A stretch of DNA of 64,000 nt from an uncultured candidatus Porisulfidus sp. (GCA_965116025.1 OZ220480.1:193335-257334); one strand, 5' to 3'. Shown: positions 6,172 to 8,014, counted from the stretch's first letter. Program-made: numbers and translations. The notes: generated by a model not told the origin, from the sequence alone.

Positions 6172-7395
6172 ATGAGAGGAACTAGAGTCCCACCGCGAAT
6201 CGAGCGATTAAAGGTGCAGAACTTCCGCGCGTTGCGCGATGTGGAGCTAAACCTTACGCCGCTCACCGTGTTACTTGGCCCAAATGGCAGTGGAAAGTCC
6301 ACGATTTTTGATGTCTTCGCCTTTTTGGCAGAGTGTTTTGAGAGCGGGCTACGTCGAGCGTGGGAAAAACGTGGCAAAGCTCGGGAACTTAGGTCGCGGG
6401 GCGGAGAGGGTCCTATATTGATTGAAATCGCATATCGCGAAAAACCGCGCACACCCTTGATCACGTATCACCTTCAAGTGGACGAGAAAAATGGCCGACC
6501 TCGCGTGGTCTGCGAATGGCTCCGATGGAAGCGGGGGCGCTACGGGCAACCGTTCAAATTTCTCGATTACGCGGACGGAGTTGGGCAGGTCATCTCGGGT
6601 GAGATGCCTGACGCGCGGGCTGAGCGGATAGAGATCCCTTTGAGTTCTCCTGATACGCTCGCGGTTAACGCGCTTGGCCAACTGGCGGAAAATTCTCGTG
6701 TCGTCGAGCTGAGAGATTTCATCATGGGATGGCATGTGTCCTACTTGTCAGCCGAGGATACGAGAGGACAACCGGAAGCGGGGCCACAGGAACGCCTGAG
6801 CAGGACAGGAGACAATCTCGCTAACGTGATTCAATATCTGTCCGAAGAACATCCAGAACTTTTGGAGTCCATTCTTGGCAGCATCAGAGAAAGGATCCCG
6901 AAAGCCCAGAGCGTGGTGGCGGACCAGATGCCGGACGGAAGGTTGTTGCTGAAAATCAAGGATGCCCCATTCGCTGACCCCGTCATGGCGCGCTTCGCGT
7001 CCGATGGCACACTTAAAGTGCTCGCCTATCTAGTCTTGTTGCGTGATCCAACCCCTCCTCCTTTTATTGGCATTGAGGAGCCGGAGAACTTCCTGCATCC
7101 ACGCCTGCTTCACGGTTTGGCGGAAGAATGCCGAACCTCCTCCGAGGCCACACAGGTCCTCGTGACCACCCATTCTCCTTTTTTCCTTGATGCGCTTCGT
7201 CCCATGGAAGTTCGGGTGTTGTGGCGCGACGAATTCGGTTACACGAGATGCGACCCCTTGGATGAGAACAAAAAAATTTTGGCGTTTATGGAAGCGGGCG
7301 CCCAGCTTGGAGATCTTTGGATGGAAGGACATTTCGGGGTTGGAGATCCGCTGACTTCGGAAGGAATGGCCATGCCGGGAAGAGGCGGGAGCTGA
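6172..7395 (+). CDS. AAA/ABC-type ATPase (AAA_21-like), AbiLi-like
   Basis: Walker [13 protein letters not shown], Walker B/D-loop [13 protein letters not shown], and VTTHSP. ATG 6172 is preceded by GGAGAGG (the ORF track starts at 6106). The stop is 1 nt from the next gene's start. Confidence 0.8.
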
Positions 7396-7396
7396 C

Positions 7397-8014
7397 ATGC
7401 CCGCGTCTCATTTGGAGTTCCTCGTGGAGGAGCGTTCCATGGAAGCGTTTCTCGTTGCTTGGCTACCAAAGTTTCTGCCGGAGGGCTGCACTTTCAAGGT
7501 CTATGCGCACCAAGGCAAAAACGCGTTGTTGAGAAAAATCGAAGATCGACTCGGAGCATATAAGGCATGGATGCCAAACGAATGTCGTATCGTGGTGGTA
7601 GTGGACCGCGACCGGGATGCGTGCGATGAACTCAAGCTCAAGATGGAGCGATTCTGTGAGAAAGCGGGATTGCGGTCGAGACGGGCCGCTGATGGTTCGG
7701 ACTGGCAAGTGGTGACGCGGATAGCCATAGAAGAGCTTGAAGCATGGTATTTTGGGGACTGGCAGGCGGTGTTGGCCGCTTTTCCGGGTGTCGCGGAGAA
7801 TATCCCAGACCGCGCGGCTTACCGGGATCCAGATGCGATTCAAGGTGGAACTTGGGAGGCATTCGAGCGGATTCTCCAGAAACATGGATATTTCGCGCAA
7901 GGACTGGCAAAAGCGCAGGCCGCTAGCGAGATTGGCCGACATATCGACCCTGTTCGCAATCGGTCCCGCAGTTTTATCGTTTTTCGCGATGCCATCGTCG
8001 ATGCCACCACATGA
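7397..8014 (+). CDS. DUF4276-like protein (TOPRIM-like E...DxD signature), AbiLii-like
   Basis: 205 aa. N-terminal LEFLVEERSMEAFL, VVVVDRDRDACDEL and IEELEAWYF motifs typical of DUF4276. Translationally coupled to the ATPase. Confidence 0.7.
   Translation: MPASHLEFLVEERSMEAFLVAWLPKFLPEGCTFKVYAHQGKNALLRKIEDRLGAYKAWMPNECRIVVVVDRDRDACDELKLKMERFCEKAGLRSRRAADGSDWQVVTRIAIEELEAWYFGDWQAVLAAFPGVAENIPDRAAYRDPDAIQGGTWEAFERILQKHGYFAQGLAKAQAASEIGRHIDPVRNRSRSFIVFRDAIVDATT

Follow-up and report, generated by a model that had tools for sequence, protein, structure and literature searches.

Genes of the ATPase and TOPRIM-like module

We analyzed a 64-kb stretch of DNA (the window) from an uncultured Candidatus Porisulfidus sp. 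that carries, at positions 6172-8014 and upstream of carA, a two-gene module whose protein profiles assign it to HEC-01, a catalogued candidate anti-phage system. Gene A (6172-7395, plus strand) encodes an ATP-binding cassette (ABC)-type ATPase (AAA_21/AAA_15) of 407 residues, corresponding to HEC-01A, and gene B (7397-8014, plus strand) a TOPRIM-like DUF4276 protein of 205 residues, a putative nuclease corresponding to HEC-01B. The pair sits between carA and a porin gene that is in divergent orientation and ends at 5947; the neighbors of the pair are Porin_4 genes, MlaC, and carA, carB, and greA. The original prediction, made from the DNA alone, had described a translationally coupled ATPase and DUF4276 gene pair, lower in GC content than its neighbors and lying between the first porin unit and carA. 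Both open reading frames (ORFs) are found exactly where it placed them, with the stop of A at 7395 and the ATG of B at 7397, and the gene map confirms their position.

The longest ORF for gene A opens at a TTG at 6106. We favor the ATG at 6172 as the start because a database protein that is 100% identical to A (P0121) and its homologues are 407-414 residues long, with an alignment beginning PPRIERLKV. The two genes meet at a compact junction (7393-7399, plus strand), formed by the TGA of A (7393-7395), a single C (7396), and the ATG of B (7397), and the start of B is preceded at 5 nt by a GGGAG run that resembles a Shine-Dalgarno sequence. This geometry of stop, 1 nt, and ATG is common to six of six loci, namely the window and five homologous loci (L081-L085), and since it is kept in all five homologues the 1-nt spacer is a conserved feature rather than a product of chance.

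The GC content of the module is 0.55 overall, and ranges across it from 0.51 to 0.57 versus 0.61-0.69 on either side. At third codon positions (GC3), A and B have values of 0.586 and 0.578, as against 0.73-0.88 in carA, carB, greA, the porin gene, and mlaC, whose overall GC content is 0.60-0.63; the compositional difference noted in the original prediction is thus borne out. An IS110-family transposase in the same window has a GC3 of 0.60, similar to that of the pair. As for non-coding features, a search of positions 5800-8400 against Rfam at a permissive threshold gave no match, and folding of positions 8008-8100, downstream of B, was not significant (z = -0.5). A terminator scan returned two intragenic hairpins only, below chance expectation, and a promoter scan returned one sigma-70-like match ~140 nt upstream of the pair, no more than expected by chance.

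Protein A combines an ABC head fold with the motifs of ABC ATPases, all encoded on the plus strand: a Walker A motif, GPNGSGKST (residues 36-44, nt 6277-6303), a Q-loop, a signature-like SDGT (from S277, nt 7000-7011), a Walker B motif, IGIEEPE (residues 299-305, nt ~7063-7086), and an H-loop, TTHSP (residues 332-336, nt 7165-7179). Across 34 homologues of 75-83% identity, G36-T44, Q170 of the Q-loop, S277DGT, I299GIEEPE305, and H334 are invariant. In Pfam, A matches AAA_21, the family first suggested for it, with an E value of 1e-29 (105 bits against a curated cutoff of 27) and AAA_15 with an E value of 2.6e-20, and no NCBIfam model scores above its cutoff, the best being MAD3 (114 bits against 420). 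Foldseek comparison of the AlphaFold model of A gives as top matches, with a probability of 1.00, Thermus OLD, PtuA (Septu, retrons), GajA, and the heads of SMC, RecN, and Rad50; a sequence search of the PDB with A agrees with this placement. Because the ABC motifs are invariant and the fold matches OLD-, PtuA-, GajA-, and SMC-type heads, we conclude that A is an ABC-type ATPase and not an AAA+ protein. For HEC-01A, too, the AAA_15/21 label has been described as a misnomer for what is an ABC ATPase (Payne et al., bioRxiv 10.1101/2024.01.29.577857). The segments of A that vary most and are modeled with least confidence (roughly residues 90-115, 144-152, and 188-247) are candidates for a sensing surface.

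Protein B matches DUF4276 (Pfam: PF14103) with an E value of 4.7e-26 over profile positions 1-184 of 192, and its 92.7 bits, against a cutoff of 30.2, uphold the family originally named. NCBIfam holds no match for B, and a sequence search of the PDB with two DUF4276 family profiles returned nothing significant, relatives being found by fold comparison only. The structural model of B is confident (pLDDT 86, pTM 0.81) and shows four strand-helix units and, after them, a C-terminal part made of helices, with the three-layer alpha/beta fold and four-stranded sheet of TOPRIM domains; it lies closest to the TOPRIM region of OLD nuclease, in agreement with the TOPRIM-like character first proposed for the protein.

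Three acidic motifs are encoded in gene B on the plus strand: VEE (residues 10-12, with E11-E12 at nt 7427-7432), DRDRD (D70-R-D72-R-D74, nt 7604-7618), and E112-E115 (nt 7730-7741). A search of 1.84 billion cluster representatives yields 1,216 relatives of B at E ≤ 0.001. In an alignment of 42 of these relatives, of 32-54% identity, E113, E115, W117, G120, D146, and F193 are invariant, and conservation reaches at least 90% at E11, D70, D72, K41, and K172. In the model, E11 comes after strand 1 and E113/E115 after strand 4, and D70-x-D72 lies at the end of strand 3, so that B has the glutamate after strand 1 and the DxD after strand 3 that are typical of TOPRIM. This pattern agrees with the description of DUF4276 as a Toprim member with E and DxD (PMC12065111), and the acidic residues fit the metal site that HEC-01 conserves with BpOLD (Payne et al., bioRxiv 10.1101/2024.01.29.577857). 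As judged from model and alignment, B is a small DUF4276 protein with a predicted TOPRIM (OLD-type) fold and a complete acidic metal site, and a putative nuclease. All the motifs quoted in the original prediction (Walker, at residues 36-44 and 299-310, and TTHSP in A, VEE and DRDRD in B) are present.

Assignment to HEC-01 and relation to other ATPase and TOPRIM systems

HEC-01 (Hma-embedded candidate 1) pairs an ABC ATPase with a TOPRIM protein (Payne et al., bioRxiv 10.1101/2024.01.29.577857; PADLOC-DB v2). By its profile matches the pair is a clear member of this candidate anti-phage system, because both proteins align over nearly their full length: A matches the HEC-01A model PDLC04182 with an E value of 1.8e-154 (512.6 bits; residues 8-392 aligned with positions 2-404 of a 406-position profile), and B matches the HEC-01B model PDLC04202 with an E value of 1.5e-80 (residues 5-202 aligned with positions 2-199 of 204). 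The two genes lie 1 nt apart on the same strand, an arrangement found also in L081-L085, and the pair shares with HEC-01 the same two proteins in the same order and the conserved OLD-like metal site. It differs in context: HEC-01 was discovered embedded in Hma (helicase-methylase-ATPase) systems, whereas the pair in the window stands alone between a porin gene and carA, with no helicase-methylase-ATPase set flanking it. The original description, a split OLD-like ATPase and TOPRIM-like DUF4276 pair forming a candidate anti-phage module, thus holds up on the Pfam scores, the HEC-01 matches, the likeness of the B model to the OLD TOPRIM region, and the accessory status of the pair (see below); "split OLD-like" is accurate as a description of the architecture.

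The A and B labels of HEC-01 in PADLOC-DB are inconsistent across sub-models (PDLC04144, PDLC04143). Some profiles labeled HEC-01B match the ATPase (E = 4.9e-113), and one labeled HEC-01A matches the DUF4276 protein (E = 7.4e-27).

Several known systems share the combination of an ATPase with a TOPRIM partner, and in PADLOC A gives cross-hits to AriA, AbiLi, mad3, Old, and GajA that are much weaker than its match to HEC-01A. AbiL (AbiLi and AbiLii) and Campylobacter RloAB likewise pair an ABC ATPase with a separate protein of the TOPRIM superfamily, and the original prediction had given AbiL as an ATPase with a DUF4276 partner. This is wrong in detail, only the architecture class being in common: AbiLii has been tied to the RloB family (PMC10440598), and RloB (PF13707) and DUF4276 (PF14103) are separate partner domains of AAA15/21 ATPases (Burman et al. 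2024), AbiL and MADS3-4 being grouped with PARIS in that study only as ABC ATPase plus TOPRIM. B has no match to RloB in Pfam (E ≤ 0.1) or to AbiLii in PADLOC. The AbiLi profile aligns with A over positions 50-282 of 326 (E = 4.8e-24), far weaker than HEC-01A and typical of cross-hits among AAA_21 ATPases. We therefore rejected an AbiL identity, B being a DUF4276 protein and AbiLii a member of the RloB family. The DUF4276 partners (HEC-01, Mad4) and the RloB partners (AbiLii) represent different branches of the TOPRIM superfamily that are commonly conflated.

PARIS combines the ABC ATPase AriA with AriB, a DUF4435 TOPRIM nuclease of ~300 residues, whereas B belongs to DUF4276 and has 205 residues; PARIS is also often found on phages and satellites, whereas the family of the pair is almost absent from viral collections. 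B matches neither DUF4435 nor the AriB profile (Pfam, PADLOC), and we rejected a PARIS identity for lack of an AriB partner. In OLD class 1 (P2 Old), OLD class 2 (Burkholderia and Thermus OLD), and Gabija GajA the two domains are fused, whereas here they are split into two coupled genes. OLD and Gabija were rejected as families on account of the two ORFs with a stop between them and the absence of an adjacent UvrD-like or GajB-like helicase.

The remaining candidate was MADS, whose Mad3 ATPase is of the AAA_21 type and whose Mad4 is homologous to DUF4276 (PMC12065111). In PADLOC, A matches mad3 with an E value of 1.6e-23 and B matches mad4 with an E value of 1.1e-5. MADS was rejected because the MAD3 score falls far short of its cutoff and no methyltransferase or other mad gene is adjacent. 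The sole further mad-like match in the window is to mad8 (E = 2.2e-15), by a TrwB/TraG-like coupling-protein ATPase 23 kb away (31474-33033, minus strand) that is conserved in the closest relative.

Variable cargo at the carA junction and horizontal spread

We compared the surroundings of carA in a CarA-based scan of species-representative genomes, which gave 80 loci, with flanks of up to 10 kb on either side. The carA-carB-greA synteny is widespread among them, and no homologue of A, B, the porin, or MlaC occurs in any of the 80, the closest relative included. This relative (L001) is a metagenome-assembled genome (MAG) named uncultured Candidatus Porisulfidus sp. (OY288106.1), a name that occurs in the literature alongside a sponge metagenome, and its CarA is 81% identical. 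By blastn, the carA leader is homologous to L001 and also to L086, a metagenome contig from JGI, and in both comparisons the homology begins exactly at position 8098. The cargo upstream of this junction is the HEC-01 pair in the window, a HigB/HigA toxin-antitoxin pair in L001 (9229-9828), and a DUF6788 gene in L086 (124-522). Because three related genomes bear three different cargoes at the same junction, the pair is accessory cargo at a variable site and not part of the core genome. The original prediction had raised conservation in the core genome of relatives as the observation that would count against it; the pair is not conserved beside carA in these relatives.

The junction lies beside a rearrangement. 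A segment of ~23 kb (~8172-31473) is inverted relative to L001, with breakpoints in the carA leader, next to the pair, and at ~31474; positions 1-9207 of L001 correspond to positions 40700 to 31474 of the window, reversed, and are followed by a direct join to carA. Because of this inversion the module lies at a synteny breakpoint. The TrwB/TraG-like ATPase gene, kept in L001, lies at the other breakpoint.

An imperfect 17-nt direct repeat (14/17 identical) brackets the module. The left copy, CCTTTGTGGGAAAATAA (6103-6119, plus strand), lies 53 nt upstream of the start of gene A, and the right copy, CCTCTGCGGTAAAATAA (8098-8114, plus strand), coincides with the start of the carA-leader homology to the relatives. 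Apart from the left copy, no sequence in the window matches the right copy at 14 or more of 17 positions, and shuffling gives a chance of ~0.0003 for a match of this kind in the 224-nt intergenic region. The repeat may be an insertion scar or target-site duplication, or a duplication of the carA promoter region; a start codon follows each copy after 53-61 nt, and no second copy was found beside the cargo in L001 or L086. It is a speculative and rather doubtful extension of these observations that in this group of sponge-associated Gammaproteobacteria the site immediately upstream of the leader of carA may act as a hot spot of recombination, at which small two-gene immunity or addiction cassettes would be exchanged. 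The variable cargo at a fixed junction provides a small example of cassettes settling among housekeeping genes and not in defense islands.

Homologues of A that are 75-83% identical occur in MAGs labeled Alphaproteobacteria, Deltaproteobacteria, Gammaproteobacteria, and Cyanobacteria/Synechococcus, whereas CarA is only 81% identical to that of the nearest relative and ~60% to those of other Gammaproteobacteria. This comparison of protein identities points to recent horizontal spread, and a HEC-01 subclade at least 75% identical across phyla could mean a recent sweep through one host-associated microbial community. The surroundings of the homologous cassettes differ from locus to locus, with type I restriction-modification and toxin-antitoxin genes in L081, a transposase and an ABC transporter in L082, a SNF2 helicase, IS66, and integrases in L084, and metabolic genes in L083 and L085. 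When 300 nt upstream and downstream of the six loci were aligned, no conservation extended past the coding regions, and the loci shared neither a terminal repeat nor an att site. We regard the pair as a two-gene cassette that is self-contained and was acquired horizontally. That it is typically borne by phages or satellites in the manner of PARIS was rejected on the counts of 0 phage records, 9 plasmid records, and 4 IMG/VR contigs.

Proposed function and further features of the window

We consider it fairly probable that the pair acts in defense against phages or mobile elements. In the mechanism we propose, an oligomer of A would bind and restrain the nuclease B and serve as a sensor of infection; B would then be set free or activated, either by a trigger of phage origin or by a change of ATP state, and active B would cut nucleic acid (tRNA or DNA), halting phage replication, possibly at a cost to the cell. 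This model, in which A sequesters B, is suggested by the analogy with PARIS and with predicted TOPRIM_OLD toxins neutralized by AAA proteins. In PARIS, AriA assembles with AriB and serves both as antitoxin and as sensor; AriB is triggered by a phage protein, and tRNA is degraded. The NetFlax study predicts that AAA proteins neutralize TOPRIM_OLD toxins. From these parallels we infer a physical complex of A and B, a trigger, a substrate, and perhaps an abortive outcome of infection. The anti-phage activity of HEC-01 itself is contested, with one negative and one positive test. A representative gave no protection against a subset of the BASEL phages and classic coliphages (Payne et al., bioRxiv 10.1101/2024.01.29.577857), and a later cold-seep metagenome study reported protection of E. 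coli B by one representative against at least one phage among T4, T5, and T7.

Several points weigh against a defensive role. The negative screen is one of them, and the positive report gives little detail. The interaction between A and B, the substrate, and the trigger are taken over from analogous systems, and the AlphaFold model of A is of moderate quality (pLDDT 69, pTM 0.75). The genomic setting also counts against it: several homologous cassettes sit among metabolic genes, carriage on plasmids is rare (9 of 72,556 records), and carriage by viruses amounts to 0 phage records and 4 IMG/VR contigs. The original prediction had listed a missing defense-island context among the points that would count against it, and no such island surrounds the pair in the window, its neighbors being porins and carAB-greA and the nearest defense-like gene a NERD-helicase ~15 kb away.

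Some of these observations bear also on a second explanation, which we regard as unlikely, that the pair is a selfish addiction cassette resembling a toxin-antitoxin system, in which B would be a TOPRIM toxin and A an ATPase antitoxin, and which would spread by post-segregational killing with no net anti-phage benefit. A compact bicistronic cassette in unrelated contexts and taxa fits this idea, as do the HigB/HigA pair at the same carA junction in L001, the NetFlax prediction of AAA antitoxins for TOPRIM_OLD toxins, and the failure of HEC-01 to protect in the screen of Payne et al. A further parallel is PARIS, whose own behavior is that of a type II toxin-antitoxin system; being at once a defense system, PARIS shows that addiction is compatible with defense. 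Against a purely selfish cassette stand the reported protection by a HEC-01 representative against at least one phage, the discovery of HEC-01 embedded in Hma defense systems, and the rarity of the cassette on plasmids, where addiction modules are usually enriched.

It appears quite unlikely to us that the pair lacks a current function and is what remains, silent or in decay, of a transferred cassette. The region is rearranged and rich in insertion sequences, and the lone sigma-70-like promoter match stands at chance level, but both ORFs are intact and, measured against the family profiles, of full length, every family-invariant catalytic and nucleotide-binding residue is kept, and the coupling junction and Shine-Dalgarno-like runs are intact. 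Very improbable is a housekeeping DNA repair or recombination pair acting on host DNA damage, like RecF with the Toprim protein RecR or like SbcCD/Rad50-Mre11: A shows weak N-terminal similarity to RecF, RecN, Rad50, SbcC, and SMC, but its score on the RecF model TIGR00611 is 30.7 bits, where the cutoff is 172, with only the ~45-residue P-loop region aligned, B has no NCBIfam match and its Pfam and PADLOC matches include no RecR or repair family, and the atypical composition, the sporadic distribution, the absence from the carA neighborhood of relatives, and a cross-phylum identity of A exceeding that of CarA all argue otherwise.

The pair adds one intact example of a very common cassette of ABC ATPase and split TOPRIM whose function is unproven; the family comprises ~4,200 clusters at 90% identity and ~1,200 at 50%. 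By itself the locus opens no new question, being an ordinary member of a catalogued family. Because the activity of HEC-01 is disputed, any well-conserved member is a possible test subject.

Among the other features of the window, the most prominent are four porin units (1746-5947, 25439-29973, 44028-48449, and 51557-55998), each a convergent Porin_4-like pair, giving eight paralogues within 64 kb. Their N- and C-terminal parts are 93-100% identical and their middles divergent, which looks like a diversified outer-membrane protein family serving as a substrate for recombination. Directly beside the second unit lies the gene for the NERD nuclease with a UvrD-like helicase (23331-25010, minus strand; PADLOC RTasNERD-Hel, E = 1.6e-55; NERD+UvrD C3a187, E = 1e-30), a second defense-like accessory gene adjoining a porin unit. 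On the other side of that unit, directly after it, an ORF of 355 residues (29978-31045, minus strand) has no match in Pfam or PADLOC. The sole tRNA gene of the window, a tRNA-Ser (33058-33145, minus strand), lies beside the TrwB/TraG-like ATPase gene. Two transposase genes are present, the IS110-family member (49182-50357, plus strand) between the third and fourth porin units and a DDE_Tnp_1 member (59720-60601, minus strand) beyond the fourth. Finally, an ORF encoding a CCDC90-like/apolipoprotein-like coiled coil (61328-61909) contains five tandem repeats of 33 nt, or 11 codons (61565-61762, plus strand).

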